From positions 592 to 16,850 of the forward strand of contig CAZEVX010000046.1 in the NCBI GenBank assembly GCA_964515705.1: 16,259 nt of DNA. Reading direction: 5' to 3'. The notes beneath the pieces were generated by a model that was not told the origin of the DNA, made no database searches, and saw only the letters and a list, made by a program, of their open reading frames with translations. Below are positions 2,343 through 16,146 of this stretch, in pieces; within the stretch, counting starts at the first letter, position 1; each line of letters starts with the position of its first letter. Made by a program: the position numbers and the translations under genes. Origin of the DNA: an uncultured Verrucomicrobiota bacterium. GTDB lineage: Bacteria; Verrucomicrobiota; Kiritimatiellia; JAAZAB01.

Positions 2343-2387
2343 GGTCGTTTCCGCGGGCGGGGCGCCGGGCGCGCCCCGTCGAGGGTC

Positions 2388-3640: not shown

Positions 3641-4747
3641 TCACCCGAAGCGCTGTTCGCGGAAGCGCTCGTATTGCTTCATCAGGCCGGGGGTGATCGA
3701 GGCCGGGATGTTGCGCAGGGCGGCCTGCAGGTCCTGCTCGCGCACGACCGGCGCGCTGTCGTCCTTCACGCAGCGCCCGAGCGCGGCGCGCTTGGCGGCG
3801 TTGACGATCCCCACGATGTCGCTGCCGGTATAGCCCTCGAGGCGGTCGGCCCAGGCCTCGAGGCCGATCTCCGGCTCGCGCGGCGCGTCCTTCAGGCTGG
3901 AGGACAGGATGCCCAGGCGCGCGGCGCGGTCGGGCGGCGGGATGAAAATCTTCTCGTCGAAGCGCCCGGTGCGGAAGACGGCCTCGTCAATCTCCCAGGG
4001 CTTGTTGGTGGCGCCGAGCAGCAGCAGCACGTTGGCGCTATCCTCGAACCCGCCGACTTCCGCCAGGAACTGCACCACGATGCGGTTGTCCACCACGGAG
4101 TTGCCGCCGCGGCGCGGCAGCAGGCCGTCGACGTCGTCGAAAAACAGGACCGCCAGCGGGTGTTCGCGGGCGGCTTTCACCAGCAGGCGCAGTTTCTGCT
4201 CCGATTCCCCGTGCCACTTCGAGCGGATTTGCGCGCCGGACGCATAGTAGAAGGGCGCGTCCAGTTCGTGCGCGATGGCCTTGCCGAGGGTGGTCTTGCC
4301 GTTGCCGGGCGGCCCGTAGAGCAGCACGCCGCCGCCGGCCTTGAGGCCCAGCGCCTTGGCCTTCTCGAGCGCTTGCAGCGGATAAATCACCATCTCGCGG
4401 ATGGTCCGCTTGGCGTCTTCCATCCCGGCGATCATCGCGAACGTCTCGGCCGCCGGGGCGTCGCCGGGGGCGGCGGCCGGCTCGCGGGCGGTGCCGGGCG
4501 GCGCTCCGGCGGGGGCGGTGCGCGGCGGCGCGGCCTTCAGGCGCGCGGCGATCTCGAGCCAGCCGTCGGCCTCGTCGGCATAGCGCTGGGCGATGGCGCC
4601 GTCGGTCTGGCTGGCCAGGGCCAGGGCGAACTCGGCGGCCTTGGCGGCGTGGAAGACCGCCTCGCGCGGGCGTCCGCCGCGGATCAGGGTCTCGCAGCGC
4701 GCCTCATGCTCGCGCTTCTTGTCGAGGAGGAAGCTCATGAGATGCAT
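3641..4747 (-). CDS. Vps4/CdvC-like AAA+ ATPase (meiotic clade) with an N-terminal MIT-like domain.
   Basis: 368 aa. The N-terminal ~75 aa (REAVFHAAKAAEFALALASQT...AIAQRYADEADGWLEIAARLK) resembles the MIT three-helix bundle of Vps4. A Pro/Ala-rich linker follows. The AAA cassette has Walker A (GPPGNGKT) and Walker B (VLFFDDVD). The meiotic-clade signatures SKWHGESE and GATNKPWEIDEAVFRTGRFDEKIFIPPPD are present (cf. Vps4 [35 protein letters not shown]). The C-terminus (MKQYERFREQRFG) resembles the Vps4 C-terminal helix (LLKQEQFTRDFG). Confidence 0.85.
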   Translation of the reverse strand: MHLMSFLLDKKREHEARCETLIRGGRPREAVFHAAKAAEFALALASQTDGAIAQRYADEADGWLEIAARLKAAPPRTAPAGAPPGTAREPAAAPGDAPAAETFAMIAGMEDAKRTIREMVIYPLQALEKAKALGLKAGGGVLLYGPPGNGKTTLGKAIAHELDAPFYYASGAQIRSKWHGESEQKLRLLVKAAREHPLAVLFFDDVDGLLPRRGGNSVVDNRIVVQFLAEVGGFEDSANVLLLLGATNKPWEIDEAVFRTGRFDEKIFIPPPDRAARLGILSSSLKDAPREPEIGLEAWADRLEGYTGSDIVGIVNAAKRAALGRCVKDDSAPVVREQDLQAALRNIPASITPGLMKQYERFREQRFG

Positions 4748-4750
4748 TCA

Positions 4751-4802
4751 GCGGAGGAGAGGAAAGGCGCTCGCGGAGGCGCGGAGGCGCGGAGGCGCGG
4801 AG
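4751..4802 (+). repeat. Copy of the short GC-rich interspersed repeat (GCGCTCGCGGAGGCGCGGAG with a tandem GCGGAGGC x3).
   Basis: It matches copies at 7444-7477, 14317-14372 and 15971-16146. It sits just upstream of the Vps4-like start codon. Confidence 0.7.
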
Positions 4803-4806
4803 CCGA

Positions 4807-5052
4807 TTATAAATGATTGACAACACGTTTGATGCCATCCTTCACGACGGGCACATTGAAGTTGATCAGAAGCCCCGGGTTTTTATTGGCAAGTTTCAGA
4901 TACGTATGCAATTGCAAAACAAACACGGGCGCCAGTTCCGCAACGGGTCCCAGTTCGCGATGTACGTCGATGGCGCAGCCGATAATCCGGCTGGCTATCA
5001 TATTCTCGGGTTTTCCCGTATGAGTTAGTGATTTCACCCCTCTCCGCGTCAC
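4807..5052 (-). pseudogene. Internally deleted GxxExxY / PD-(D/E)XK_3 family protein remnant.
   Basis: The translation ENMIASRIIGCAIDVHRELGP is joined directly to VAELAPVFVLQLHTYLKLANKNPGLLINFNVPVVKDGIKRVVNHL. These match the N-terminal (..VHRELGPGLLESVYE..) and C-terminal (..VHKAQLLTYLKLSGLKLGLLINFNxxLLKDGIKRIVN) ends of GxxExxY proteins. About 60 central residues are missing, including the GxxExxY and catalytic motifs. The track's M is a GTG at 5052 inside the flanking repeat. The real start is probably near 5001. Confidence 0.65.
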
Positions 5053-5088
5053 CGCGAGTTCATTCCTCTTCTCCGCATCTCCGCGAGA
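5037..5088 (-). repeat. Inverted copy of the interspersed repeat (revcomp GATCTCGCGGAGATGCGGAGAAGAGGAATGAACTCGCGGTGACGCGGAGAGGGG).
   Basis: The reverse complement shares GCGGAGAAGAGGAATGAACTCGCGG with the copy at 16106-16130. It abuts the stop codon of the ESCRT-III gene (5089-5091). Confidence 0.7.
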
Positions 5089-5718
5089 TCACTTCCCATC
5101 CAGCAACTTCTTCACCCGCTCCTGGCCGTCCGCCAGCCGGCTGTCGAGCGCGCCGCCGGCCCGGGCGGCGGCGGCGCCGCCGACGTCGGCGGCGACTTCC
5201 TGCTCGAGTTGCCGGCTGAGTTCTTCCATGCTCGGGATATGATCCTCGAGGGCGGCGGCGGCGCCTTCGGTCTCCTTGCCGTAGAGTTTTTCCCAGAAGC
5301 GGTCGGCGTCTACCTGCTCGCCGAGCAGGTCCTGGGCCTCCTCGAAGACGTCGGCCACCTGTTCGGGGTCGATCTTGACGACCTGGTTGATGCGCTGGAG
5401 CGCGTCGGAAAACTGCTGGTCGGACTCCGCCGCCTGGAGCTTGGTGTAATACTGCTCGAAGACCCAGCGTTTCTGTTCGAGCTTGGTCATCAGCACCTGC
5501 GCGGCGCGGTAACTGATCAGGGCGCGCTGGGCGGCGGCTTTCTGGCCGGCCGTCATCGCCGCGCGCGCCTGGTCCCATTGCTTCTTGGAGTCGCGGTCCA
5601 TCTGCTTGACGCGGTCCTTGACGGTCTCGATGGCGTTCTCGGCCTGGCGGAAGGCGTGCCGCCGTTCCTTGCGCGCGTCGCGCGCGCGCTCTTTCTTGGA
5701 CTTGAAGAGGTGGGTCAT
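5089..5718 (-). CDS. ESCRT-III / Snf7 (CHMP)-family protein.
   Basis: 209 aa. It has a basic N-terminus (MTHLFKSKKERARDARKERR, cf. Snf7/CHMP MGLFGKxxK...) and a helical hairpin rich in K/Q/A. The acidic alpha4-5 signature VVKIDPEQVADVFEEAQDLLGEQVD resembles Snf7 DIDKVDETMDEIREQVELGDEISDA. The acidic C-terminal tail ends ..LDSRLADGQERVKKLLDGK. A strong SD (AAAGGAG) lies 6 nt upstream of the ATG. Confidence 0.8.
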   Translation of the reverse strand: MTHLFKSKKERARDARKERRHAFRQAENAIETVKDRVKQMDRDSKKQWDQARAAMTAGQKAAAQRALISYRAAQVLMTKLEQKRWVFEQYYTKLQAAESDQQFSDALQRINQVVKIDPEQVADVFEEAQDLLGEQVDADRFWEKLYGKETEGAAAALEDHIPSMEELSRQLEQEVAADVGGAAAARAGGALDSRLADGQERVKKLLDGK

Positions 5719-5759
5719 GGGTCGGCTCCTTTCGGGCGGGCCGCGGCGGACGCCGCGCG

Positions 5760-6701
5760 CTATCCGTCGGTCTTGTCCGGGGATTCGGGCCGCGGCGCCG
5801 GGTCGCTTGCCGGCGGCGTCTCCTTGGCCGCGGGCGTGTCGAACCCGGCCAACTCCTGTTCGAGGGCGCTGGCGGCGGCGGGCGTCTCGAAGTCCGCCAG
5901 TTGCTCCCGGAACGCCTCGCGGTCGGACTCGCGCTCGCGCCGGCGCCCGGCGCGCTCCAGGTCGCGCGCGGCGTCGGCGCGGTCTTCGGCCTCCTGGACC
6001 TTGTCCTCGACGTCGTCAATCAAGTCATCGATCGCCGCGTCCTTGACGCCGGCCATGCCGTAGGCCATGACCTCGAGCATGCGCCCCTTGACCTGGGCGA
6101 GGGTGCGCTCGTTTTCGAGCAGGACCGTCAGTTCGCGTTCCGTGGCCTTGTAGGCGGCCAGCAGCGTCTGGAGTTCGGCCTCCAGCAGGCGCTTGCGGGC
6201 GGGCGGCGCGGTCTCGTAGACCTTCTTCTTGGCGGCGATCTCCTGGAAGCGGGTGTCGAGGGTCGTTGACAAGGCGGTGCGCCGCGCCGCGTTGGCGGCG
6301 GCGGCGCTCTCGATCGTCTGCAGCATGGCCTGCGGGGATTTGTCCTGGTGCAGTTTGCGGAACAGGGTCAGCGCGCCGGCGCCCAGTTTCCGGGTCAGGC
6401 GCAGGGTTTCCTGCATGGCGGCCTTGAGCTTGGCGGGGTCCGGCTTGGGCGCCGCCGGCCCGGCGGGCGGAAGCGCGTCTGTCGGAGCGTTCACGGGGTC
6501 CTCCTTGTCCGGCGGCGACGCCGGCGCCGCCGCCGGCGCCGGGCGGGCGTCCGGTTCCCGGTATCCGTGGGCCGGGCAGAGCCGGTTGCCGCGATGCCAA
6601 TGTAGCGCGCAGAACGGCTGGGCGCAATCCGGATGTTGGCAGCGGCCGGCGACGGCATACCGGCTGGGCAAAGGCTTGCCGCAGACACCGCAGGTGTCCA
6701 T
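5760..6701 (-). CDS. ESCRT-III / Snf7-family protein fused to an N-terminal Cys/His zinc finger (AN1/MYND/HIT-like spacing).
   Basis: 313 aa. The N-terminal C4-x2-C7-x13-C21-x4-C26-x4-C31-x2-H34-x-H36-x5-C42-x2-H45 is a Pro/Ala-rich linker. A Snf7-like core follows (..KKKVYETAPPARKRLLEAELQTLLAAYKATERELTVLLENERTLAQVKGRMLEVMAYGMAGVKDAAIDDLIDDVEDKVQEAEDRADA). Compare CHMP MDIDKIDDLMQDIADQQELAEEIS. The C-terminal tail has two LA[DG]F[ED]TPAA motifs and a Pro-rich end. The start is 6 nt after the OMP stop. Confidence 0.75.
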   Translation of the reverse strand: MDTCGVCGKPLPSRYAVAGRCQHPDCAQPFCALHWHRGNRLCPAHGYREPDARPAPAAAPASPPDKEDPVNAPTDALPPAGPAAPKPDPAKLKAAMQETLRLTRKLGAGALTLFRKLHQDKSPQAMLQTIESAAAANAARRTALSTTLDTRFQEIAAKKKVYETAPPARKRLLEAELQTLLAAYKATERELTVLLENERTLAQVKGRMLEVMAYGMAGVKDAAIDDLIDDVEDKVQEAEDRADAARDLERAGRRRERESDREAFREQLADFETPAAASALEQELAGFDTPAAKETPPASDPAPRPESPDKTDG

Positions 6702-6707
6702 GGCGCG

Positions 6708-7394
6708 CTAGAACTCCTGGCGCACGCCGAGTTCGGCGAACGGCAGTTGCAGGCGTTCGGCGAAGTCGCTGTTCTTCAAACGCTGGTCGCGGTAGCCGGC
6801 GGCCAGGTAGAGGTTGGCGTTCTTGGCGATGGCGTCGAGCGTGACGGCGTAGGCCAGCCCGCCCTCGTAGGACCACAGCCAGGCCCAGCCGTCCTTGTCG
6901 GGCACGTCGGTGTTCATGCGCATCGGCAGCACGCGGGTGTTGGCGAACAGGAAGAACCCGCTGCGGCCGAGCGGCACGTTGACGTTGACGCCCAGCCCGG
7001 CGCCGAGCCCGGTGGTGGCGAGGCTCTTGCCCCAGGCCGGGTCGTTCTTGAGGTCGTAGTCGTACCACATCCCGCGGACATCGGCGAAGATCCCGAACAT
7101 CGAGGCGATCTCGTACATCACGATGGCGTCGGCGTCCACGCGGTCCATGTCGCCCAGCGAGCCGTAGAGGCCCTCGACGCCGATCGCCCAGCGTTCGCTG
7201 TTGCCGGGCCGGAACAGCAGGCTCGGCCCGAACATGGCGCCGCTCTCGGAATAATCGCCGTCGCCGTAGAGCGCGGTGTCCTTCCAGTGCGCGCCGCCGA
7301 GGCGCAGTCCGTAGGAGGCCGTTTCGGAATAGGCGCCCTGCGCCAGCAGCGCCAGGGCAAGTCCCGCGGTCAGCCATCGAAGTCTCGGGTTCAT
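6708..7394 (-). CDS. Outer-membrane beta-barrel protein (OMP_b-brl-like).
   Basis: The start is taken at the internal ATG at 7394 (MNPRLRWLTAGLALALLAQGAYS signal peptide, with GAAAGGA 3 nt upstream). The track ORF extends to 7487. It shows an alternating hydrophobic/aromatic beta-strand pattern (WAIGVEGLYGS.., YEIASMFGIFADVRGMWYDYD, LGAGLGVNVNVPL, GFFLFANTRVL, WAWLWSYEGGLAYAVTL, NLYLAAGYR) and a C-terminal ..RQEF (terminal Phe). Confidence 0.75.
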   Translation of the reverse strand: MNPRLRWLTAGLALALLAQGAYSETASYGLRLGGAHWKDTALYGDGDYSESGAMFGPSLLFRPGNSERWAIGVEGLYGSLGDMDRVDADAIVMYEIASMFGIFADVRGMWYDYDLKNDPAWGKSLATTGLGAGLGVNVNVPLGRSGFFLFANTRVLPMRMNTDVPDKDGWAWLWSYEGGLAYAVTLDAIAKNANLYLAAGYRDQRLKNSDFAERLQLPFAELGVRQEF

Positions 7395-7443
7395 GGGAGT
7401 CCTTTCAGTAGGTTGTTGCGTGGCGGGGCGCGAAGCGACGATG

Positions 7444-7477
7444 GCTCGCGGAGACGCGGAGAATGCGGAGAGGAATC
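7444..7477 (+). repeat. Copy of the interspersed repeat (GCTCGCGGAGACGCGGAGAATGCGGAGAGGAATCC).
   Basis: The core CTCGCGGAGACGCGGAG is identical to the copy at 14343-14359. It is intergenic, between genes 7600-8298 and 6708-7394. Confidence 0.7.
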
Positions 7478-7599
7478 CTGGGCGCAAAGCGCCGTGCCGG
7501 AAAAAATCTCGCGTAGGCGCGGAGGACGCTGAACGATAGCCATACGTGCTCCTGCATGTTCCGCTACCGCCAACCTGCGGTCTGCCGCCGTCCGGCCGC

Positions 7600-8298
7600 C
7601 TAGCGCGGGCGGGTGCAGCGGCGCACCAGGCCGCGCAGCAGCAGCAGGCTGACCACCAGGGCGAAGAGCGCCAGGAGGACCAGCGCGATTTCGACCTTGT
7701 AATAGATCACCAGGTCCCGCAGCGGGGGATACGATTCGCCTTCGGCATTCGCGCCGCCGATGCGCTCGCGGGTGTCCACGCGCGCCAGGGAGAGCGGAAT
7801 GCTGACCCAGGCCCTCAGCCAGTCCTCGTCCACGTGGCGCACCCGGCCGACCAGCAGGGCGTCGGCGCCCTTGGCGCTCTCGGGGATGACGTAGGTTCCG
7901 CGCACGGCCTTCCACTTGATGGCGGCCTTGTCCATGATGTCCCCGAAGCCAGAGTTCGGGTCCGTCCGCGCCCACTCGTCCTCGATCTCTTTCCAGTCCG
8001 CGCCCCGCAGGATCACCACGTGGAAGCGCTTTTCCGCCGAGAGCCGGGCCGCCAGCAGTTCCGTGAAGTTGCGCGGGTCGTTGGCCAGCGGCAGGATGCC
8101 GATGTTGGCGACGCCCTCGAGGTGCGGCGCGTTCAGCGCCTCGCGAATCCATTGCTCGATGGCCTGCCCCGCCGCCCGGTCAATGGTCCGCTCGCGGATC
8201 ACGCCGGTTGGCGCCTGGAAGGCCGCCGGCGCGGTTCCGGCCAGCAGCATCCAGCCCGCCAGCATGGTTCCCAACATCCCGGTTGTCTGTCTGCGCAT
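7600..8298 (-). CDS. Hypothetical secreted/periplasmic protein with a C-terminal transmembrane anchor.
   Basis: 232 aa. It has an N-terminal signal peptide (MLGTMLAGWMLLAGTAPAAFQ), a GILPLANDP..ELLAARL segment reminiscent of CsgG/LpoB/TolB-N-type folds (weak), and a C-terminal hydrophobic helix (VEIALVLLALFALVVSLLLL) followed by a basic tail. Confidence 0.55.
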   Translation of the reverse strand: MRRQTTGMLGTMLAGWMLLAGTAPAAFQAPTGVIRERTIDRAAGQAIEQWIREALNAPHLEGVANIGILPLANDPRNFTELLAARLSAEKRFHVVILRGADWKEIEDEWARTDPNSGFGDIMDKAAIKWKAVRGTYVIPESAKGADALLVGRVRHVDEDWLRAWVSIPLSLARVDTRERIGGANAEGESYPPLRDLVIYYKVEIALVLLALFALVVSLLLLRGLVRRCTRPR

Positions 8299-8325
8299 GG
8301 GAGCTCTCCTTTCCGTTCCTGGGGA

Positions 8326-9243
8326 TCACTTGTAGTGCGTCAGAATCCGCTGCAGGGCGTCCATCGCGCCCGGTTCGTAGGTCGAAAGCCGCAGCCGGAT
8401 GCCCGGCAGGTCCGCCAGCAGTTGGCCGATGTCCGACTCGTGTTTCAGCCCGTAGATGATCTCGTAGGACGCCGTTTCGCTCTCGCGGTCCCACTGCAGC
8501 AGGTCCACGTAATTGATGTAGGCCCGGCGTTCCAGTTCGTTCTGGATCGCCACGGCGGCGTCCATCGTCGGGACGCTGTTGACGATCAGGCCCGCCCAGA
8601 GCAACTGGTCGGTCTTGGCGAACAGGTCGTCGAGCAGCCCCGCGCTGACCTTGGCGCCGGCGGCGCGCAGGGCCAGCAGCCCGGCGCGCGCGCTGTCCTG
8701 CTCGCGGGGGCCGTCGGCCTCGAGGCGGGCCGTCGCCAGCAGCGTGCCGTCCCGCCCGCGCACCGCCTGGGCGTCGGCCGTGGCGCGGTAGCGGGCGAAC
8801 CGGCCGGTGGTGTTGACGAAGGCGCTGCGGGCCTCGACCCGCACCACGAGGTGCGCCTTGACGGCCCGGCTGAGCGCCGCCAGGTCGGTGGCGGCGGGCA
8901 CGGCGTCGCTGAACAGCCGGAAATCGCGCCGCACCAGCTCGCGCTCCAGGAGCGGCTTGATTTCCGAGGCCGCGGCCGTCGCGCCGTCCGGGCCGGCGAC
9001 CGTTTCCTGCCCGATGACCACCGTGCGCAGTTTGCCGAACTTGACCAGTTGCCCGCTGCGCGCTTCCAGCGCCCGGAGCGTGTTGGTCGGCGCGGATGGC
9101 GGGCCGGGGGGTGGCGGGAGCGGCACGGTGACCCGCGGCTCGGGCGGCGGGGGCGGCGGGATCGTGGAACAGCCGGCGATCAGCAATACGGCGGCGGCCT
9201 GGCCGACGGCCGCCAGGACGCGCAGGCTTGAGCGACGGGTCAT
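8326..9243 (-). CDS. Hypothetical lipoprotein with a Pro-rich linker.
   Basis: The start is taken at the internal ATG at 9243 (MTRRSSLRVLAAVGQAAAVLLIAGC|S lipobox, with AGGAGA 6 nt upstream). The track ORF extends to 9408 through a Pro/Arg-rich N-terminus that is probably not translated. The mature N-terminus has PPPPPPEP..PLPPPPGPP. Confidence 0.65.
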   Translation of the reverse strand: MTRRSSLRVLAAVGQAAAVLLIAGCSTIPPPPPPEPRVTVPLPPPPGPPSAPTNTLRALEARSGQLVKFGKLRTVVIGQETVAGPDGATAAASEIKPLLERELVRRDFRLFSDAVPAATDLAALSRAVKAHLVVRVEARSAFVNTTGRFARYRATADAQAVRGRDGTLLATARLEADGPREQDSARAGLLALRAAGAKVSAGLLDDLFAKTDQLLWAGLIVNSVPTMDAAVAIQNELERRAYINYVDLLQWDRESETASYEIIYGLKHESDIGQLLADLPGIRLRLSTYEPGAMDALQRILTHYK

Positions 9244-9364
9244 GGGGAGTCTCCTGGTTCCGGGATTAGGGTCGGTCGGACGCCGCGATCGGGCACGCGG
9301 CCTACAGTGTGGTGATGATTGTTGCAGGCCCGCTGCCCTCGCCGGGCGACGGGGTCGCTCGTGT

Positions 9365-11014
9365 TCAGACATCCGGGTGGCGGAACGGTTCGACGCGCAC
9401 CTCGCCATGGGGCGCGCGCAGGGTTTGGCCGGGCGTCAGCCAGTCGCATCGGCCGCCGAGATGCAGCAGGAAGGCGTCCTGCTGCCGGCAGACGCAGGCC
9501 GACCCCAGGCGCGCGTCCAGCAGGCCGAGGGCGGCGTGTTTCCAGAGCGCCACGATCGCCTCGTGCGGCCGGCCGCGCTGGCGCAGGATCAGGCAGGCCG
9601 GACTGTCGGGCGCCGCGCGCCCGCGGCAGGCGGGCTGGCACGGGTCCGCCTGGCCGCACGCCTGCAGGTCGAGGTCGAACGCCACGCAGGCCGAGTCGTC
9701 CGGGTCCGCGCTGCCGAGCGTCAGCAGATGGCGCCGGCCAGCGACGATCGGCGCGCCGTCCGCGTCGCCGACCCGGCGCCCGTCCAGGAAGGTCCCGTGG
9801 GTGCTGGGTTTCGCCTGCCGGGCCGGGGCCGGCAGGCGCCGATCGAGGAGCAGGCAGCGATTCCCGTCCAGCCGCAGGCAGCAATGGAACTGGCTGATCC
9901 AGAGCACGTCCTCCTCGCGGCGGCTCAGGGGGCGGGCCAGGATGTCGGAGTCCTTGTGGCGGCCCAGTTGCAGGAGCGGCGCGGCCAGCAGGCGCGCGGT
10001 CAGCGTTCCGCACCGCAGCGTCAGGCCGCGCGCCTGCGCCGCCGGGGGCGGGCGCTGGACGGGGTGCGGCAGGAACCCGCCGCCCTCGCGCGGCGGCCTG
10101 TAATGGTGGCATTTCTTCAGCGGCAGGGTTTTCCAGCGCGGCGGGATGTCGAACTCCGCCAACTCGCGCACCGGATCGCTGGCGCGCGACTTGAGGGCCT
10201 CGAGCCCGTTGATGGCCTGGTGCACCTGGGCGTCGCCGGCATGGCCCTGCTTGATGTCATTCTTGAGCTCGATGTTCAGCGTGTGGATCACGTGCCCGAT
10301 CGTTTCCTGGGCCTTGAAGACATGATGCTTGACCATCGCCCGGAACCAGTGGTCGCCGCCGTCCCGCGTGAAGCCGACGAGCACGTCGTACGAGATTTTC
10401 CCGCCCAGCCCCGACGGGGGGGCATAGTTGAAATAGATCGGGATGGGTTGGCCGCGGGAAATTTCCAGTTCGGGCTCGTCACTGTTCAGCAGCGCCTGGT
10501 CCAGACGGATTTCGACCCGCAGGTTGGAAAGCCCTTCGCGCAACGGCCGCAGGCGGAACTCGAACGGGAACATCATGTTTTGCACAAACACCCGGCTGCA
10601 GTTGAACTGGATGTCCCAGTCGTCACACTGGCTGCGCTCCATGCCATCGGTCCACACGGCGCTGTCGGCGTCCGGCTCGCGGTCGAGCGCCGGCCGGTCG
10701 GCGCTCGCCGCGCCGCGCTCCGCCAGCGCCTCGGCCCGCGCGGCGGCCGCTTCCAAGATTCCCGCCCGCCGGCCGGCGGGCGCGCCGCCCGCGCCGGCCT
10801 CCGCCGCGGGCGGCTCCGGGGTCGGGTCCGCGCCCGCCGCCGCCGCGATGCCGCTGGCCGGCGCCGGGTCGGCGGCCGCGGCGCGCGTCGGGGCGCTGTC
10901 GCGGGAGTCGGCGCCGGGCGCCGCCGCCAAATCCTGGCCGCAGATCGGGCAGAAGGCGGCGGCCTCTTCCGGCTCGAGCGGTTGGCGGCAGTGCGGGCAG
11001 GCGCGGGCGGTCAT
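9365..11014 (-). CDS. Zinc-ribbon + FHA-domain protein.
   Basis: 549 aa. The N-terminal CPHCRQPL..FCPICGQDL is a zinc ribbon, followed by an Ala/Pro-rich low-complexity region and a ~230-aa central region of unknown family. The C-terminal FHA domain is ..LQLGRHKDSDILARPLSRREEDVLWISQFHCCLRLDGNRCLLLD..STHGTFLDGRRV..IVAGRRHLLTLG (GR..DI, S..H, S.HGT.LDG and GxxxLxLG motifs). The start is 4 nt after the stop of the upstream SPFH gene. Confidence 0.75.
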   Translation of the reverse strand: MTARACPHCRQPLEPEEAAAFCPICGQDLAAAPGADSRDSAPTRAAAADPAPASGIAAAAGADPTPEPPAAEAGAGGAPAGRRAGILEAAAARAEALAERGAASADRPALDREPDADSAVWTDGMERSQCDDWDIQFNCSRVFVQNMMFPFEFRLRPLREGLSNLRVEIRLDQALLNSDEPELEISRGQPIPIYFNYAPPSGLGGKISYDVLVGFTRDGGDHWFRAMVKHHVFKAQETIGHVIHTLNIELKNDIKQGHAGDAQVHQAINGLEALKSRASDPVRELAEFDIPPRWKTLPLKKCHHYRPPREGGGFLPHPVQRPPPAAQARGLTLRCGTLTARLLAAPLLQLGRHKDSDILARPLSRREEDVLWISQFHCCLRLDGNRCLLLDRRLPAPARQAKPSTHGTFLDGRRVGDADGAPIVAGRRHLLTLGSADPDDSACVAFDLDLQACGQADPCQPACRGRAAPDSPACLILRQRGRPHEAIVALWKHAALGLLDARLGSACVCRQQDAFLLHLGGRCDWLTPGQTLRAPHGEVRVEPFRHPDV

Positions 11015-11018
11015 GGCC

Positions 11019-12680
11019 TCATTTCACCACGTGGGTCGTCGTGCCGGGATGCCTGGCCGCCTCGGCGGTCGTCTCGAGCGCCGACTTCAAGATGCGCTCG
11101 AGGCGCTCGGCGGATTCGTCCAGCAGGTTCTTGCGCTCGGCCCAGTCCTTGTCGCGGTCCTCGCGCTTGGCGCGCTCCATCTCCGCCAGCACCCGCACCA
11201 CGTCGGGGTTGCGCCCGGCCTGCAGCGCCAGGATCACGTCGGCCGATTTCCCCTGCGCCTGCAACTGCTCGTTCAGTTTCAGCAGCGCCTCGCGCCGCGC
11301 CGGGTCGTCGGTCATCGCCACCAGCGTTTGCAGGCTCAGCTTGTCCTGGACGGCCGCCCGCTCGGCGTAATCCTGGCGCTCGAAAGCCTTTTTCTTCGCG
11401 CGCACGTCGATCCATTTCAAGGCCTCGTCGACCTCGCGCGCGGTGGTCATCTTCGCCAACTCGTCCTGCAGCCGGGCGTCCTTCGTCTGCCGGTCGCGGG
11501 TGTAGTCGTCCCACTGGATCTTGACCTTGATCTCGTGGGCGGCCTTCTCGATCTCGCAGGCCATGCGGTAGGCGGCCTCTTTCTGGTCGAGTTCGTGGCG
11601 CTGCACCATTTTCAGCAGCGCCAGTTCGCGGTCGCGCTTCTCGGCCGAAATCGCGCGCTCCTGCGCCAACTGCTTGACGTAGTCCTCGAGGTCCTGCTCG
11701 CTCTTGAACAGGTGCATCTTCTCGGACGCCACCAGCTCCCGCAGGCGCTGGCCGAACTCGATCTCGCGCCGGCGCAACTCGAGCGCCCCGGCCTGCGCGC
11801 GCAACGCGTCAAATTCCTTGCCCGAAAACTCGGCCGCCGCCACGCGCACCAGCTCGAGGCCGTAGCGCTCGAGCGCCGTTTTCAGCGTGGTCTCGAGCGC
11901 GTCCTCGACCTGCAGCCGGCGCTGCGGGTCCTTGACCAGGTCGTCGGCCGTCGAGGTCGCGCAGAGGGTCGTCACGGCATAGCGCAGTTCCGCCCGCAAA
12001 ATCTCGGCGATTTCGTCCGCCATCAGCCAGTCGCGGCTCTTGAACAGGTTGGCCACGAAGGCCGGCGCGCCCTTCTCGGAGAAATGAAAGACGGCCTCGA
12101 TTTGCAGGTCCAGCGGCAGCTCCTCGTGCGAGCGCAGGCCCTCGAACCGCAGCGGCAGCGTCACGTCGCCGTTGTCCACCAGGATCGCCGTGCGCGGCGG
12201 CGGGTCGCCCCACCAGTTGATCTTGCGCGCCAGGCTCTCGAGGGTGTGCCGCCCGGGCCCGAGCACGTCCTTGTACGCCCCGCCGTCCAGCAGGATCGCC
12301 GCCGTGCCGGTTTGGATCTCAAGTCCGTTCTTCACCAGCGCCAGGATGTCGCCCACCTCGAGGCGCCGCGCGAACTGCTCGAACCCCTTCTGCCATTGTC
12401 CACCGGCCACCTCGTTGCGGCTCTCGGGATGCAGCGCCTGCTTGCAGTTCCAGCAGAACTCCGATTCGTTGCCGACTTTCTTCCCGCAGCCGGGGCATTG
12501 CCACCAGCCGCCCGGCGCCGGCGCCCCGCACTTGGCGCAGAACAGGGCCGCCTTCTTGACCGCATGCCCGCAGCGCGGCCAGCCGGGATCCTGCAGGGCG
12601 TCCTGCAGGGCTTTGCCGGCCAGCGCCTTGCCGGTGGTCTTGTCCACCAGCGCCCGGCAGGTATCCGAAAAGAGTCCCAT
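11019..12680 (-). CDS. Double zinc-ribbon + SPFH (band-7/flotillin-like) domain protein with a long C-terminal coiled coil.
   Basis: 553 aa. The N-terminus carries two zinc ribbons: PRCGHAVKKAALFCAKCGAP, then WQCPGCGKKVGNESEFCWNCKQAL. An SPFH-like core follows (GTAAILLDGGAYKDVLGPGRHTLE..TAILVDNGDVTLPLRFEGLRSHEELPLDLQIEAVFHF..). The C-terminal ~250 aa is Glu/Ala/Lys/Arg-rich, flotillin-style coiled coil. AGGAGA lies 5 nt upstream of the ATG. Confidence 0.7.
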   Translation of the reverse strand: MGLFSDTCRALVDKTTGKALAGKALQDALQDPGWPRCGHAVKKAALFCAKCGAPAPGGWWQCPGCGKKVGNESEFCWNCKQALHPESRNEVAGGQWQKGFEQFARRLEVGDILALVKNGLEIQTGTAAILLDGGAYKDVLGPGRHTLESLARKINWWGDPPPRTAILVDNGDVTLPLRFEGLRSHEELPLDLQIEAVFHFSEKGAPAFVANLFKSRDWLMADEIAEILRAELRYAVTTLCATSTADDLVKDPQRRLQVEDALETTLKTALERYGLELVRVAAAEFSGKEFDALRAQAGALELRRREIEFGQRLRELVASEKMHLFKSEQDLEDYVKQLAQERAISAEKRDRELALLKMVQRHELDQKEAAYRMACEIEKAAHEIKVKIQWDDYTRDRQTKDARLQDELAKMTTAREVDEALKWIDVRAKKKAFERQDYAERAAVQDKLSLQTLVAMTDDPARREALLKLNEQLQAQGKSADVILALQAGRNPDVVRVLAEMERAKREDRDKDWAERKNLLDESAERLERILKSALETTAEAARHPGTTTHVVK

Positions 12681-12699
12681 GGCGGTCTCCTGAATAGGC

Positions 12700-12770
12700 G
12701 GGTTGTGGTTTGCGGTTGGCGATTAGCCGTTGGCAAGTTGCGGGTTGCGGTTGGTCATTCGTTGTGGTTC
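12700..12770 (-). promoter_or_regulatory. GTTG-rich degenerate direct repeats in the leader/upstream region of the SPFH gene.
   Basis: TTGCGGTTGG appears at 12710-12719 and 12745-12754. GTTGTGGTT appears at 12703-12711 and 12761-12769 (on the coding strand: CCAACCGCAA / AACCACAAC). It lies in the 230-bp gap between the HTH gene stop (12912) and the SPFH start (12680). Confidence 0.35.
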
Positions 12771-12911
12771 TTCGCTGGTTTCAGTGGCCAACGGGAAAGG
12801 CTCGAGATATTCGCGTATTCCAGCGGCCGCCCAGGCTGTGCGGCCCTACCCACATGGCGCCATGATTGTCCCAAACCCCGTTCGCCAACCACCAACCACC
12901 ATTCGCCGTCC

Positions 12912-13259
12912 CTACCCGCTTTTCCGCCCGCCGGGCTCCCCGCCGTGCTCCGAACAGACCCGTACCCGCTTGCGCTCCCAGCAGTCCAGGCAGATCGGCG
13001 CCCCGCATTCCTTGCACGACTGGTTCAGCGACAACTTGCTCTGGTAGGTCTTCGCGCAGGCCGAGCATACCCCGCCGCCGCGGTCAATCTTACTCGTCTC
13101 CAGATAGGCATCAAGGTCTTTCCGCGATACCCGGTAAACTTTTCCGACCCGCGAGGCCGGCAACTCGCCCGCCCGGACGAGCTTGTAAATCAACTGGTAA
13201 TGCACGCCCAGCAGCGCGGCGACGTCGTCCAACGAAAGAAACTCTTTGTCCGGGCTCAT
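12912..13259 (-). CDS. Excisionase/MerR-type helix-turn-helix (HTH_17-like) DNA-binding protein with a C-terminal zinc ribbon.
   Basis: 115 aa. LSLDDVAALLGVHYQLIYKLVRAGELPASRVGKVYRVSRKDLDAYL matches the excisionase-family HTH pattern (cf. LLTVKEAAELLGVSRSTIYRLIRRGELPAVKIG..W.I.REDLEEYL). The C-terminal is CSACAK..x11..CKECGAPICLDCW..VCSEHG. GAAAGGGG lies upstream of the ATG. Confidence 0.7.
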   Translation of the reverse strand: MSPDKEFLSLDDVAALLGVHYQLIYKLVRAGELPASRVGKVYRVSRKDLDAYLETSKIDRGGGVCSACAKTYQSKLSLNQSCKECGAPICLDCWERKRVRVCSEHGGEPGGRKSG

Positions 13260-13318
13260 GCTGGCCCCTTTCGCCCCCGCGGATGACCGATCTTGACCAC
13301 TACTTGCCTTTCGGTTCC

Positions 13319-13347
13319 CTTTTATGCCTGGTTATCTGCATTGTCAA
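13319..13347 (-). promoter_or_regulatory. Putative sigma70-type promoter for the HTH gene (and possibly the downstream minus-strand array).
   Basis: On the minus strand: TTGACA (revcomp of 13342-13347), a 17-nt spacer, then TAAAAG (revcomp of 13319-13324). It lies in the only AT-rich patch of the window (13320-13375), ~55 nt upstream of the ATG at 13259. Confidence 0.4.
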
Positions 13348-13377
13348 ACATTTATTTTCAATATTTTTTATTGGGGA

Positions 13378-13406
13378 TTGACGGGCTGCCTGCTTGGGGA
13401 TAGGCT
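13378..13406 (+). promoter_or_regulatory. Possible weak sigma70-like promoter for the divergent plus-strand genes.
   Basis: TTGACG (13378-13383), a 17-nt spacer, then TAGGCT (13401-13406). It is ~45 nt upstream of the ATG at 13450. The -10 element is a poor match. Confidence 0.25.
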
Positions 13407-13449
13407 GTTGCCAGATTCGGATGTGGTGTCAGGCTTGGATGAAGCTGGT

Positions 13450-13854
13450 ATGAGCGCATCCCGCCCGGTGGACGTCCTCAAGACGGCGCTCAGCACGCTG
13501 GTGCTGGTCTCGGGCGCCATTGGCAGTGTCGTCAACCTGCTCCGGGGCAACAGCATCCCGTTCGCCATTTCGCTGACGGGGTTTTTGCTAATCGTCCTGA
13601 TTGTCCTTTCCGAGGTGCGGGCGGCGTTGCGTGAATCGCGCGCCGCGGCCGCGCAGTCCCGCCGCGCGCCCGCGGACACGGCGGCCTTGTCGGGCGCGGC
13701 GTGCCCGGACTGGCTGGACCTGGCCGCGGCCTCGGCCCGCCACCCGGAAGCCCCGGAGGCCGCCGCGGATGGGCGGGTGTACCTGGCGGACTCCGGCGCG
13801 CCGGTGATCCGCCTCGTGGCGCTGGAACCGGCGGAGGGCCGCCGCCATGGATGA
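13450..13854 (+). CDS. Small membrane protein (two predicted TM helices).
   Basis: The start is taken at the internal ATG at 13450 (MSASRPVDVLKTALSTLVLVSGAIGSVVNLL...IPFAISLTGFLLIVLIVLSEV). The track ORF starts at 13324 inside the AT-rich promoter region. Its stop overlaps the next start (ATGGATGA). Confidence 0.5.
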   Translation: MSASRPVDVLKTALSTLVLVSGAIGSVVNLLRGNSIPFAISLTGFLLIVLIVLSEVRAALRESRAAAAQSRRAPADTAALSGAACPDWLDLAAASARHPEAPEAAADGRVYLADSGAPVIRLVALEPAEGRRHG

Positions 13855-14317
13855 ACGCACGCAGGCGGCGCTCGGCAAGTTCGAGGCCGCCCTGTCGGCC
13901 GAGGAGCGCCAGGCGGTGGTTCGCCACCTGCTCTCGGAGGCGCTGGTCGAGATTCCCTGCTGCCAGTGCGCCCGCGGGCGCTTTGTGCTGCCGCCCGGCC
14001 GGACGGCGGCCTTCGAGTGCCCGGCCTGCGGCGCGCGCACCTATGCCCGGCAGGACGGGGCCGCGCTGGCCATGGTGTCCGAGGCGCGCCTGCGGCGCAT
14101 CCTGCGCTTCGCCGCCGCGCGCCCCTGGTTCTGTCCCGAGCACGCCGGCGTCCGCGTCGCGGTCACCGGCGTCGCGCCCGACCCGGCCAATCCCTTTGCG
14201 ATCCGCATCCAGTTCAACTGCCGCCGCGCGCGCGGCTGGGGCCGCGCGCGCGTCCATGCCGGGGTCCGCGAGGAGAACGCGCTGTCGCTCGAGGCCGCCA
14301 TGCCGGCCGCGCCTTGA
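13847..14317 (+). CDS. Hypothetical protein with a zinc-ribbon motif.
   Basis: 156 aa. It has CCQCARGRFVLPPGRTAAFECPACGARTY (a C4 ribbon) plus a ..FCPEH.. segment. The 8-nt start/stop overlap with the upstream gene suggests translational coupling. Confidence 0.5.
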   Translation: MDERTQAALGKFEAALSAEERQAVVRHLLSEALVEIPCCQCARGRFVLPPGRTAAFECPACGARTYARQDGAALAMVSEARLRRILRFAAARPWFCPEHAGVRVAVTGVAPDPANPFAIRIQFNCRRARGWGRARVHAGVREENALSLEAAMPAAP

Positions 14318-14372
14318 GAGCGCGGAGGAGGCAGCCAGGACGCTCGCGGAGACGCGGAGAGGGTGGAGCGCC
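14317..14372 (+). repeat. Copy of the interspersed repeat (GAGAGCGCGGAGGAGGCAGCCAGGACGCTCGCGGAGACGCGGAGAGGGTGGAGCGCC).
   Basis: The core CTCGCGGAGACGCGGAG is at 14343-14359. It begins at the stop codon of gene 13847-14317 and precedes the kinase gene. Confidence 0.7.
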
Positions 14373-14405
14373 TTGTCCCGACCCGGAGTCGTGTGGCGGC
14401 CACCC

Positions 14406-15926
14406 ATGCCGGCCCGCGTGGCAGGCGCCTTCCTGATGCATAGCAACCACGGGAATGGCTTTCCCATGCAACACTCCATCAATACCGAGAACACCATCGG
14501 CAACCAGCCGGATGGCATGCCGGAAAGCTATATGCTCGCTCCGGGCCAAACGCTGGGCCATTACCGTGTCGTCCGGCCTCTGGGCAGAGGCGGGATGGGA
14601 GAGGTCTACGAGGTCAACCATCAGGTCTTTGGCAGCCGGATGGCGTTGAAAACGATTCTGCGGGAGTTTGCGGCCTCCGAGCGCTTTCAGAAACGCTTTC
14701 TGGACGAGGCGCGCCTGATGCACCGGTTGCAGAATCGCTATATCGTGCATTGTTCCGATGCCGGGGAGCATGACGGGATCTGGTACTTGGTGATGGATTA
14801 TGTGGAGGGACCTGCCGGCGAGCCCGTGAACTTGATGACGCTGCTGCAGCAGCGGCGCGAAAAGGCGCTGCTGTTCGAGGAGGAAGAAGGGGTGCTGGTT
14901 GGCATGCAACTCTGCGAGGCCTTGGCCTATGCCCACTCGTATCGGGACGAGCAGATCCAATCGGGGATCATTCATCGCGATCTCAAACCGGCCAACGTGC
15001 TGCTCAACCGGGATACGCAGTTGCTGGTCACGGACTTCGGTCTGGCGCGGCTGCTGGGGCCTGGGTTCGAACAGAGCGTGATCTCGAGGTCCATGGCCGC
15101 GGCGGTGTCCATGGGCGCCCAGGCCACGCGGGGTTCCCGTTCCGGCACGGCGGGGTCAGACCAGGTCGGCACGTTCGATTACATGAGCCCGGAGCAGCGC
15201 GAAGGGCGGGAAGCGGACGCGCGCAGCGACGTCTATTCCCTGGGAGCCATGCTGTATGAATTGTTGACGGGGCGCAAGGTGGCGGGAGTGCCGCTGAAAC
15301 CGAGCCGGGCGCGGAAGGGGTTGGATCCGATCTGGGACATCATCATCTACGAGCGTTGCTTGTGTGCCGATCCTGACGGGCGCTACGCCAGCGCCGCGGA
15401 GCTGAAAGCGGATATCTTGAAGGAAGTGCCGTGTGCGGCCGGCGAATGGGCCCCGGCCGGCCTGGGCCCAACCCCTGGTTCGGAGGCAGCGAAGCCGGAA
15501 GCGATTGGCCAACTCGCCCACGATCGCGGGCGGCGGGCAGTCGACATCCAGCCAAGATTGACGCCGGCTTCGCCCGCCGAGAGTCCCGTGCCGCCGACCG
15601 GTGTTGCCGAGCTGGGGTATTGGTATCGGGATGCGTGGAAACACGGCAAAACATTTTCCGGGCGATCCCGGCGCCGGGCCTTTTGGATGTTTACTTTGGT
15701 CGATGTCATTATTTCCTTCGGCGTGGGATTTGCCACGGCAGGGGTTGCCGAAATTCCATATATGATTGTCATGTTTCTCCCCAGGTGGGCGGTTGCGGTG
15801 CGCCGGTTGCATGACACGGGACGTAGCGGCTGGTGGAGTCTGCTCCCGATCCTCAATCTCGTCTACTTGTGCGAGGACAGCCAGCCGGGCGTCAACGCGT
15901 ATGGGCCGAATCCGAAAGGACAATAA
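14406..15926 (+). CDS. Hanks-type Ser/Thr protein kinase fused to a C-terminal DUF805 membrane domain.
   Basis: The kinase has a Gly loop (LGRGGMGEVYEV), catalytic Lys (MALKTIL), HRDLKPANVLL and DFGLARL. It carries a ~50-aa Ser/Thr/Gly-rich activation-loop insertion before GTFDYMSPEQ. The C-terminal YWYRDAWKHGKTFSGRSRRRAFWMFTLVDVIISF..IPYMIVMFLPRWAVAVRRLHDTGRSGWWSLLPILNLVYL..GVNAYGPNP matches DUF805 (E. coli YhaH-like: FSGRARRKEYWMF..LPWWAVQFRRLHDTDRSAWW..NRFGPDP). The start is uncertain among the in-frame ATGs at 14406, 14436 and 14466. The upstream part of the track ORF (13701-14405) is a GC-frame artefact overlapping gene 13847-14317. Confidence 0.8.
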   Translation: MPARVAGAFLMHSNHGNGFPMQHSINTENTIGNQPDGMPESYMLAPGQTLGHYRVVRPLGRGGMGEVYEVNHQVFGSRMALKTILREFAASERFQKRFLDEARLMHRLQNRYIVHCSDAGEHDGIWYLVMDYVEGPAGEPVNLMTLLQQRREKALLFEEEEGVLVGMQLCEALAYAHSYRDEQIQSGIIHRDLKPANVLLNRDTQLLVTDFGLARLLGPGFEQSVISRSMAAAVSMGAQATRGSRSGTAGSDQVGTFDYMSPEQREGREADARSDVYSLGAMLYELLTGRKVAGVPLKPSRARKGLDPIWDIIIYERCLCADPDGRYASAAELKADILKEVPCAAGEWAPAGLGPTPGSEAAKPEAIGQLAHDRGRRAVDIQPRLTPASPAESPVPPTGVAELGYWYRDAWKHGKTFSGRSRRRAFWMFTLVDVIISFGVGFATAGVAEIPYMIVMFLPRWAVAVRRLHDTGRSGWWSLLPILNLVYLCEDSQPGVNAYGPNPKGQ

Positions 15927-15970
15927 CGGGGGCTCGGTCGTCTTCCCGCCGCGGCCACGCCCGCGCCGGG

Positions 15971-16146
15971 GAAGCAGGCGCTCGCGGAGACGCGAAGGAA
16001 GCGGAGAAGAGGACGCTCGCGGAGACGCGGAGAGCGCGGAGCGCCGGTAGGGCGCGGCAGCCCTGCCGCGCCGGAGAGGAAGGCGCTCGCGGAGGCGCGG
16101 AGAGCGCGGAGAAGAGGAATGAACTCGCGGAGAGGCGGAGAGAGGG
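15971..16146 (+). repeat. Array of three degenerate copies of the interspersed repeat plus an embedded GC hairpin.
   Basis: Unit 1 is 15975-16010 (GCGCTCGCGGAGACGCGAAGGAAGCGGAGAAGAGGA). Unit 2 is 16012-16046 (GACGCTCGCGGAGACGCGGAGAGCGCGGAGCGCC). A 9-bp-stem hairpin follows at 16051-16072 (GGCGCGGCAGCCCTGCCGCGCC). Unit 3 is 16075-16146 (GGAAGGCGCTCGCGGAGGCGCGGAGAGCGCGGAGAAGAGGAATGAACTCGCGGAGAGGCGGAGAGAGG). Unit 3 is a contiguous version of the two half-elements that flank the GxxExxY remnant at 4751-5088. Confidence 0.7.

Follow-up and report, generated by a model that had tools for sequence, protein, structure and literature searches.

A Hanks-type kinase fused to DUF805 next to a conserved Snf7-like, AAA+, SPFH and FHA gene cluster in an uncultured Verrucomicrobiota bacterium

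In this analysis of a 16,259-nt stretch of contig CAZEVX010000046.1 from an uncultured Verrucomicrobiota bacterium (the whole stretch is hereafter called the window, and all coordinates are window positions), we focused on one gene of the plus strand, 14406..15926, whose 506-residue product joins a Hanks-type Ser/Thr kinase to a C-terminal DUF805 module. The fusion, which had been proposed in an initial annotation, is genuine, since both domains lie above the Pfam thresholds in one open reading frame (ORF) with DUF805 at the C-terminus. Taken alone, it is one rare architecture among the many of a highly modular kinase family, and little can be learned from it about DUF805 beyond membrane insertion. 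Its value lies in its context: all three kinase-DUF805 genes that were found adjoin a conserved cluster, encoding Snf7-like, AAA+, SPFH and FHA proteins, that was not found described. Based on sequence comparison and gene neighbourhood, we consider it likely that the protein is an accessory membrane-tethered kinase of a phospho-regulated Snf7-like/SPFH membrane system. The parts of this reading differ in their strength: the architecture and the membrane-anchor role are very probable, the case for a functional link to the cluster is evenly balanced, and a specific circuit from the kinase to the FHA protein is doubtful.

The kinase-DUF805 protein

The gene and its parts are as follows:
14406..15926, plus strand: kinase-DUF805 gene, 506 residues, a single ORF with Pfam Pkinase and DUF805; alternative starts at 14436 and 14466
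14562..15422, plus strand: catalytic domain of the Hanks-type kinase, from residue 53 to about residue 339 (Pfam Pkinase at 53-292; the alignment to PknB reaches 339)
15033..15194, plus strand: extended activation segment from DFG to SPE, residues 210-263, 54 residues, delimited by alignment to PknB
15423..15614, plus strand: Pro/Ala-rich linker, residues 340-403, with no conservation in alignment A1; in-frame GC content at third codon positions (GC3) 0.71
15615..15923, plus strand: DUF805 module, residues 404-506, defined by Pfam PF05656, an AlphaFold2 (AF2) model and hydropathy

Residues are numbered from the first ATG at 14406, from which one frame runs without interruption to the stop codon at 15924-15926. 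The kinase-DUF805 junction needs no frameshift, and both domains thus share a frame, as the initial annotation had assumed. The frame itself is open from 13701, upstream of the first ATG. In a window with an overall GC content of about 0.69, the GC content at the three codon positions of this frame follows a non-coding pattern at 13701-14405 (0.67, 0.89 and 0.74) and a coding one at 14406-15926 (0.64, 0.47 and 0.76). An identical 506-residue protein is already present in NCBI (P0001) as one sequence from one contig of 16,850 nt. Because the homologues begin near M21, to which their N-termini align in alignment A1 (position 14466), translation may start at 14436 or 14466 instead of 14406. Ahead of the kinase domain, residues 21-35 (14466..14510) carry a conserved motif with the consensus S-x-G-x-x-x-T-[ILMV], in which T30 was nearly invariant in a 13-sequence alignment; it is possible that the region around T30 is a regulatory phosphosite or a docking motif.

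The match to Pfam Pkinase (PF00069) covers residues 53-292 with an E-value of 8.4e-39 and 134 bits against a cut-off of 31.7. Its motifs are intact, i.e., the GRGGMGEV glycine loop, K82 in MALK, E101, HRDLKPAN at 190-197 (D192 and N197), DFG at 210-212 and SPE at 261-263. None of these motifs, K82, E101, D192, N197 and D210 included, varies in alignment A1, and they also align to PknB, so that the protein is apparently a catalytically competent, RD-type Hanks Ser/Thr kinase. Its best matches among the solved structures are PknB of M. tuberculosis, StkP of S. pneumoniae and YabT of B. subtilis (E about 4e-29).

The initial annotation had described an expanded Ser/Thr-rich activation loop in the fusion protein. 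The loop is present: in the phmmer alignment, residues 220-245 (15063-15140) form an insert that is unaligned where PknB has about four residues, which makes some 22-23 extra residues. The DFG-to-SPE segment of PknB is 31 residues long, in agreement with this alignment. Eleven of the 54 residues are Ser or Thr, which make up 26% of the insert compared with 9% of the whole protein. Other differences from PknB are the seven residues (SYRDEQI) inserted before HRD and the deletion of about 14 after the alpha-F region. The loop is not, however, specific to the fusion; activation segments of at least 45 residues were found in 97 of the 120 nearest homologues, whatever their C-terminus. Across the family, the segments span 50-65 residues with conserved Ser/Thr positions. 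Counted over the 129 family members with segments of 48-62 residues, Ser or Thr is conserved at positions 224 (80%), 229 (91%), 235 (74%), 241 (92%), 248-250 (72-76%) and 256 (97%). As judged from these comparisons, the long loop is a conserved trait of this kinase family of the Planctomycetes-Verrucomicrobia-Chlamydiae (PVC) bacteria that is unrelated to the C-terminal domain, and it is plausibly a multi-site regulatory element.

The DUF805 assignment made in the initial annotation was borne out by a profile search, in which PF05656 matched residues 416-501 (profile positions 3-111) with an E-value of 1.5e-18 and 67.7 bits against a gathering cut-off of 25.7. The motifs quoted in the initial annotation, FSGRSRRRAFWMF, LPRWAVAVRRLHDTGRSGWW and SVISRSMAAAVSMGAQATRGSRSGTAGSDQVGT, are literally present. 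The family motifs are GRxRRxxYW, RRLHDxGxSGWW and DSxPGxNxYGPNPK, and all 15 columns that are invariant in the 121-sequence alignment A3 are kept in the window protein. In the AF2 model, which was based on a 121-sequence alignment and has a mean predicted local distance difference test (pLDDT) score of 87.6, an amphipathic helix at 405-412 precedes two transmembrane (TM) helices of 22 residues each, TM1 at 423-444 and TM2 at 449-470, with a turn of four residues between them. These are followed by a third hydrophobic segment at 475-489, which is short, kinked at Pro481 and 7-8 residues shorter than in most DUF805 members, and by a C-terminal hairpin with GxNxYGPNP that carries the DSQPGxNxYGPNPK motif. 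By hydropathy, residues 424-489 are the only hydrophobic part of the protein if one helix buried in the kinase is set aside. Since both hydropathy and the model place the only hydrophobic segments of the protein in DUF805, its proposed role as a C-terminal membrane anchor is very probable. Arg-rich GRSRRR lies N-terminal of TM1 and RRLHDTGRS C-terminal of TM2; according to the positive-inside rule, Arg-rich flanks stay cytoplasmic, which would place both on the kinase side of the membrane. The predicted periplasmic exposure is then limited to a loop of about four residues and perhaps a 17-residue tail. A Foldseek search of the DUF805 model against the PDB returned no meaningful analogue (best E 2.5).

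A search with residues 394-506 yielded 1,259 relatives, of which the best 120 are 114-198 residues long (most about 115-125) and carry no kinase. DUF805 is the sole Pfam domain in 119 of these and one has an added zinc ribbon, in keeping with the earlier statement that DUF805 is normally a stand-alone protein. The window module is 39-52% identical to these best 120 by search and 45-55% in the alignment. There, the stand-alone proteins are covered from their very N-termini, with LGYWY opposite MxWY.

Rarity and origin of the fusion

Fusions of a kinase to DUF805 occur elsewhere, though rarely. Of the 120 best matches to the full-length protein, only P0052 (MBN1672426.1, 742 residues) and P0056 (690 residues) combined Pkinase and DUF805 as the window protein does. 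Moreover, only P0001 and P0052 extended into DUF805 among the top 150 matches of a HMMER scan of 1.84 billion cluster representatives, and a GTDB scan with the full kinase-DUF805 protein revealed no close relative. P0052, which comes from a metagenome-assembled genome (MAG) of Kiritimatiellia, and P0056, which is metagenomic, resemble the window protein in having an N-terminal Hanks kinase, a low-complexity linker and then DUF805, with activation segments of 58 and 55 residues, respectively, compared with 54. Their kinase domains share only 33-34% identity, and their DUF805 modules only 30-32%, with those of the window protein. They differ from it in an extra multi-TM C-terminal extension of about 200 residues, which the window protein lacks, and in the absence of its seven-residue insert before HRD. 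The window DUF805 is 51% identical to stand-alone proteins versus 30-32% to the modules of P0052 and P0056, whose best DUF805 matches are stand-alone proteins too. Because the best DUF805 matches are in each case stand-alone proteins, the fusions probably arose independently.

Because the alignment, with 45-55% identity, takes in the stand-alone proteins from their beginning, it appears that a complete DUF805 gene was appended to the kinase, probably in a fairly recent capture. GC3 steps down across the gene from 0.80 in the kinase and 0.71 in the linker to 0.67 in DUF805, and it is 0.87-0.93 in all ten genes of the neighbouring cluster and in o176 and o156, the two genes directly upstream. 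A GC3 lower than that of all the neighbours points to a recent acquisition or to the capture of a module.

The nearest kinase relatives (P0002-P0013, with kinase domains that are 50-67% identical) carry FGE-sulfatase, GYF_2, RDD, LysM+YkuD, MamF_MmsF or DnaJ-CXXCXGXG modules. Since these closest homologues have other C-terminal modules, DUF805 looks like one interchangeable membrane anchor among several. The kinase family is of the PVC lineage (Lentisphaerae, Kiritimatiellae, Verrucomicrobiota and Planctomycetota), and its C-terminal modules are swapped freely. According to the available parts of a survey of PVC Ser/Thr kinases, 70-80% of them are membrane-spanning and they form 307 architectures with repeated independent origins (PMC11032199). 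RDD and double zinc ribbon are among the accessory domains named in these parts of the survey, and DUF805 was not found among those in the available part of its supplement. In the same family, we noted an ENA scaffold (L002) with five Hanks kinase genes in 18 kb, several of them fused to FGE-sulfatase, Laminin_G_3 or DnaJ-type zinc-finger domains, which is an illustration of its extreme expansion and tandem clustering.

The initial annotation had regarded the fusion as a handle on DUF805 function, with DUF805 as a membrane sensor or anchor. The generic anchor fits, and the sensor is weakened by the swapped modules and the minimal predicted periplasmic exposure. As a handle on function, the fusion is weak because the nearest paralogues and the kinase at the matching position of a related locus (L004) carry other membrane or soluble modules. 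The literature searched contained no functional data on DUF805, which was mentioned only in passing.

The neighbouring cluster and the surroundings of the kinase gene

The cluster lies on the minus strand, divergent from the kinase gene, and consists of genes encoding a zinc-ribbon-SPFH protein, an FHA protein, four unknowns, a Snf7-like protein, an AAA+ ATPase, a 399-residue protein and a second Hanks kinase:
11019..12680, minus strand: double-zinc-ribbon and SPFH/Band-7 protein, first gene of the cluster (Pfam Band_7 and DZR)
9365..11014, minus strand: FHA-domain protein, of the phospho-threonine reader type (Pfam FHA, E 1.6e-5)
5760..9408, minus strand: four conserved proteins of 360, 232, 259 and 313 residues, with same-order orthologues in L012 (48-56% identical)
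5089..5718, minus strand: Snf7-like protein of the ESCRT-III superfamily, 209 residues (by Pfam, family relatives, AF2 and Foldseek)
3641..4747, minus strand: single-domain classical AAA+ ATPase, 368 residues (Pfam AAA and AAA_lid_3; 49-65% identical across loci)
3..2387, minus strand: second Hanks kinase with an N-terminal zinc ribbon and a double zinc ribbon (Pfam Pkinase, DZR and Zn_Ribbon_1), running off the window end

All three kinase-DUF805 genes are situated within 10 kb of the orthologous AAA+ gene of the cluster. The P0052 gene (L001/L012) adjoins the Snf7-like gene too; the short contig of P0056 (L003) shows no recognisable Snf7-like gene. The window is syntenic with L001/L012, L003 and L004, with identities of 62-65% for the AAA+ ATPase, 65-70% for the Snf7-like protein and about 50% for the 313-residue protein. 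In L004 and L005, the equivalent position, directly between another kinase and the AAA+ gene, is taken by a 51%-identical kinase with MamF_MmsF. A six-frame scan of 18 loci with hidden Markov models (HMMs) found DUF805 only in the window, L001/L012 and L003.

A GTDB scan with the alignment of the Snf7-like protein showed that the cluster recurs in 11 loci (L008-L018) from MAGs of Lentisphaerae, Victivallales, Kiritimatiellae and Verrucomicrobiota, most of which keep the order zinc-ribbon-SPFH, FHA, (unknowns), Snf7-like and AAA+. Orthologues of the zinc-ribbon-SPFH protein were present in seven other loci (38-62% identical). The FHA gene follows the SPFH gene in L009, L012, L013, L014, L016 and L017, and it is also found in L018, a short contig that does not reach the SPFH gene. 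No Pfam family was found for the four conserved proteins of 360, 232, 259 and 313 residues; that of 313 residues has relatives in most loci, and that of 259 residues has a match in L001 as well, L001 and L012 being one contig. A kinase gene comes after the AAA+ gene in L013, L014, L016 and L017, and wherever the flanks are usable, i.e., in all loci but the 3.9-kb contig L015, the cluster has at least one kinase gene nearby. Neither kinase-DUF805 proteins nor a PVC cluster that includes FHA and Ser/Thr kinases were found described in the literature searched, which was incomplete and is no proof of novelty. The conserved cluster appears to be more novel than the fusion itself.

The Pfam Snf7 profile matched the window copy of the Snf7-like protein below its cut-off of 27.3 (E 0.003, 17.7 bits) and the 70%-identical orthologue in L001 above it (29.5 bits). 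Many of the 438 relatives of this family carry PF03357, and some have been named 'Snf7 family protein' by NCBI. A profile search of the PDB sequences placed SNF7 first (E 0.003), and the AF2 model (pLDDT 80.4) gave PspA, CdvB2, Asgard ESCRT-IIIB, Vipp1, Snf7 and IST1 as its top Foldseek matches in the PDB, with probabilities of up to 0.99 but weak E-values of 0.17-1. On the basis of these matches, the 209-residue protein is a member of the Snf7/ESCRT-III fold. Its C-terminal tail is nearly invariant (GQERVKKLLDGK) and is reminiscent of the MIT-interacting motifs of ESCRT-III.

The best PDB matches of the AAA+ ATPase were the D2 domains of VAT and p97/Cdc48, not Vps4. Its N-terminus looks by eye like a helical bundle, and Pfam detected no MIT domain in seven orthologous N-termini at E-values of up to 10. 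With VAT/p97 D2 as its closest relatives and no MIT domain detected, we did not give it the name Vps4. According to a 2025 review, a Vps4-like ATPase regulating ESCRT-III appears to be absent in bacteria (PMC7619361).

The remaining features of the window surround the kinase gene:
12722..13450: intergenic region, about 700 nt long, that separates o176-o156-kinase from the divergent cluster operon; GC 0.62, the lowest in the window
13450..13854, plus strand: o176, small two-TM protein, probably translated from M43 at 13450 in an ORF that is open from 13324; GC3 0.88
13847..14317, plus strand: o156, zinc-ribbon-like CxxC...CxxC protein with only weak Zn-binding Pfam matches; GC3 0.92
14342..14361, plus strand: copy of the dispersed 20-nt repeat GCTCGCGGAGACGCGGAGAG, upstream of the kinase gene
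15967..16142, plus strand: repeat array with a period of about 35 nt and four GCTCGCGGAGACGCGGAGAG copies, just past the kinase stop (Tandem Repeats Finder and motif search)

The o156 gene shares 8 nt with the end of o176, and 89-149 nt separate its own end from the kinase start downstream; a probable operon is o176-o156-kinase, with o176 as its first gene. No Pfam family was found for either o176 or o156. Their homologues adjoin the AAA+ gene in L008 (11336..12218) and L009 (11750..12600), where o156 is 38-42% identical to that of the window, and L009 keeps the order AAA+, o176, o156 and kinase. The L009 kinase (12640..15531) is truncated at about 100 residues, and a 562-residue transposase-like ORF lies downstream on the opposite strand; it looks as though an insertion sequence had disrupted this kinase. 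The intergenic region 12722..13450 is probably a shared regulatory region. Scans for promoters and terminators gave nothing above the shuffled expectation, and no candidate for a sigma-70-like promoter in this region exceeded chance. The window, this region included, has no tRNA and no Rfam match.

The repeat GCTCGCGGAGACGCGGAGAG is made of two CGCGGAGA units, and nine copies with up to three mismatches occur in the window (4769, 5040, 5069, 7444, 14342, 15980, 16015, 16085 and 16123), compared with 0.01 expected; they are mostly intergenic. Because it is absent from all 18 related loci fetched, it is, as far as its distribution tells, a genome-specific REP-like element or operator.

Proposed role, rival explanations and comparison with known systems

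In the reading that we favour, the kinase domain would be cytoplasmic and tethered to the inner membrane by the C-terminal DUF805 via the stop-free linker of 64 residues, with DUF805 acting mainly as a membrane-localising anchor and not as a large ligand sensor. The kinase would activate by autophosphorylating its long loop and would, at the membrane, phosphorylate components of the neighbouring ESCRT-III-like/SPFH system; the FHA protein of the cluster would read the resulting phospho-threonines. The recurrent placement beside the cluster, which is a matter of neighbourhood only, suggests that the kinase may feed phosphorylation into the presumed membrane-remodelling or membrane-stress system that the cluster encodes.

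Several observations speak against this proposal. The kinase gene is compositionally atypical and lies between dispersed repeats, which a recent insertion would explain no less well than long-standing functional coupling. The fusion is represented by a single sequence, from one contig of a MAG, and it may not be maintained by selection. DUF805 occurs within 10 kb in only one of the 11 GTDB cluster loci (L012), which makes it a variable accessory rather than a core part of the system. In kinase-crowded genomes, such as that with five kinase genes in 18 kb (L002), some adjacency of a kinase to the cluster could be coincidental. Finally, with a third hydrophobic segment of only about 15 residues, the protein may cross the membrane two or three times, and its C-terminal motif may lie on either side.

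Much of this is equally what the main rival draws on, namely a neutral domain shuffle with coincidental adjacency, in which DUF805 is a generic anchor on one of many paralogous kinases and the adjacency results from kinase density and shared locus ancestry. The kinase family is extremely abundant and modular, the GC3 of the kinase gene differs from that of the cluster with repeats on both flanks, and DUF805 is absent from ten of the 11 GTDB cluster loci. However, all three kinase-DUF805 genes lie at most 10 kb from the cluster despite an identity of 33-34% in the kinase and 30-32% in DUF805, and the o176/o156 pair is associated with the cluster in L008 and L009, with a kinase next in the latter. 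We regard such a shuffle as possible, though rather unlikely.

It is decidedly unlikely that DUF805 is a membrane sensor controlling the kinase and that the Ser/Thr-rich loop is a fusion-specific autophosphorylation platform that recruits an FHA protein, as the initial annotation had envisaged. The invariant DUF805 motifs GRxRRxxYW, RRLHDTGRSGWW and DSxPGxNxYGPNPK exceed the needs of a passive anchor, an FHA protein is encoded nearby and the Ser/Thr residues of the loop are conserved, including T241 at 92%. Yet the loop is as widespread among homologues with other C-termini as described above, and RDD, MamF_MmsF or soluble domains replace DUF805 in the nearest relatives. The predicted extracytoplasmic exposure is minimal. 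Moreover, no conserved +3 residue, as FHA ligands need, was seen by eye in alignment A1 after the conserved threonines T30 and T241.

An assembly or annotation artefact, i.e., a sequencing frameshift or a chimeric MAG contig that merged two separate genes, would account for a protein that is a singleton in a collection of 5.8 billion sequences and for the stepwise fall of GC3 across the gene. We rejected it as very improbable because the frame continues through the 64-residue linker without a stop, independent kinase-DUF805 fusions exist in two other assemblies, and the genome-specific GCTCGCGGAGACGCGGAGAG repeat, present on both sides of the gene and in the cluster (the copies at 4769 to 7444), ties the region to one genome. 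An anti-phage defence kinase of the PD-T4-6, MADS Mad6 or PglW type, which PADLOC models for PD-T4-6 (up to 199 bits) and mad6 (182 bits) and NCBIfam antiphage_MADS6 (122.8 bits) might suggest, is scarcely credible and was rejected, as these matches reflect generic kinase and AAA similarity only: the NCBIfam scores stay far below their cut-offs (122.8 versus 460 for antiphage_MADS6 and 59.6 versus 990 for PglW), the matches are confined to the generic kinase domain, an unrelated neighbouring kinase scores even higher, and no methyltransferase, BREX or other defence partner was present among the ten cluster proteins scanned.

If the accessory membrane-tethered kinase is indeed wired to the cluster, a Snf7-family/AAA+ pair under Ser/Thr phosphorylation would be of interest for the question of how ESCRT-III evolved and for bacterial membrane repair, and it would provide testable substrates for an orphan kinase family. 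A broader version, which we consider unlikely, would join these elements into a phospho-regulated ESCRT-III-like machine of Lentisphaerae, Kiritimatiellae and related PVC bacteria, built of a Snf7-family polymer, a dedicated AAA+ ATPase that disassembles it, a scaffold of the zinc-ribbon-SPFH type, an FHA protein as reader and several Hanks kinases. Membrane-embedded kinases, kinase-DUF805 among them, would provide its input, and DUF805 would have been recruited repeatedly and independently as a recogniser of the membrane state, e.g., of lipid composition, curvature or a microdomain. If true, this would be the first functional assignment for DUF805 and a bacterial counterpart of kinase-controlled ESCRT-III dynamics.

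Among the known systems, Ravi et al. described in 2024 (PMC11237479) gene neighbourhoods of PspA/Snf7 in bacteria that include AAA+ ATPases and Band-7/zinc-ribbon partners, e.g., ydjFGHL of B. subtilis. As far as the available parts of that work go, such associations match the window cluster, in which a Snf7-family protein is encoded together with a zinc-ribbon-Band-7 protein and a classical AAA+ ATPase. The same parts contain no mention that we found of FHA proteins or DUF805, and their kinase passages concern histidine kinases.

Similar to the window protein as predicted, PknB, StkP and YabT are membrane-anchored Hanks kinases. In PknB and StkP, a single TM helix is combined with extracellular PASTA repeats, and the activation segment is 31 residues long, whereas the window protein has a multi-helix DUF805 anchor and a 54-residue segment. 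The model for PASTA-type PknB/Stk1 (NF033483) scored 193 against a cut-off of 450, over the kinase domain only, and no PASTA domain was found. YabT has a C-terminal anchor and no extracellular sensor domain, like the window protein, according to the available part of its description (PMC6333020).

The modular PVC kinases covered by the available parts of the survey (e.g., kinase-FGE-sulfatase, kinase-RDD and kinase-DZR; PMC11032199) belong to the same subfamily as the window protein, with 50-67% identity (P0002-P0013) and an extended activation segment, and they share its design of a cytoplasmic kinase with a variable C-terminal module. Most members of the kinase family have one TM helix and a large periplasmic domain, whereas the window protein is essentially without a periplasmic domain.

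Stand-alone DUF805 proteins of the E. coli YhaH/YhaI type (the closest being P0121, P0122 and P0125) are 45-55% identical over the whole module and have all the invariant motifs in common with it. They are about 115-125 residues long with nothing attached, whereas the window module follows a kinase and linker of 400 residues. The shortened third hydrophobic segment PILNLVYLCEDSQPG is common to the window protein and the stand-alone proteins P0121, P0125 and P0132.

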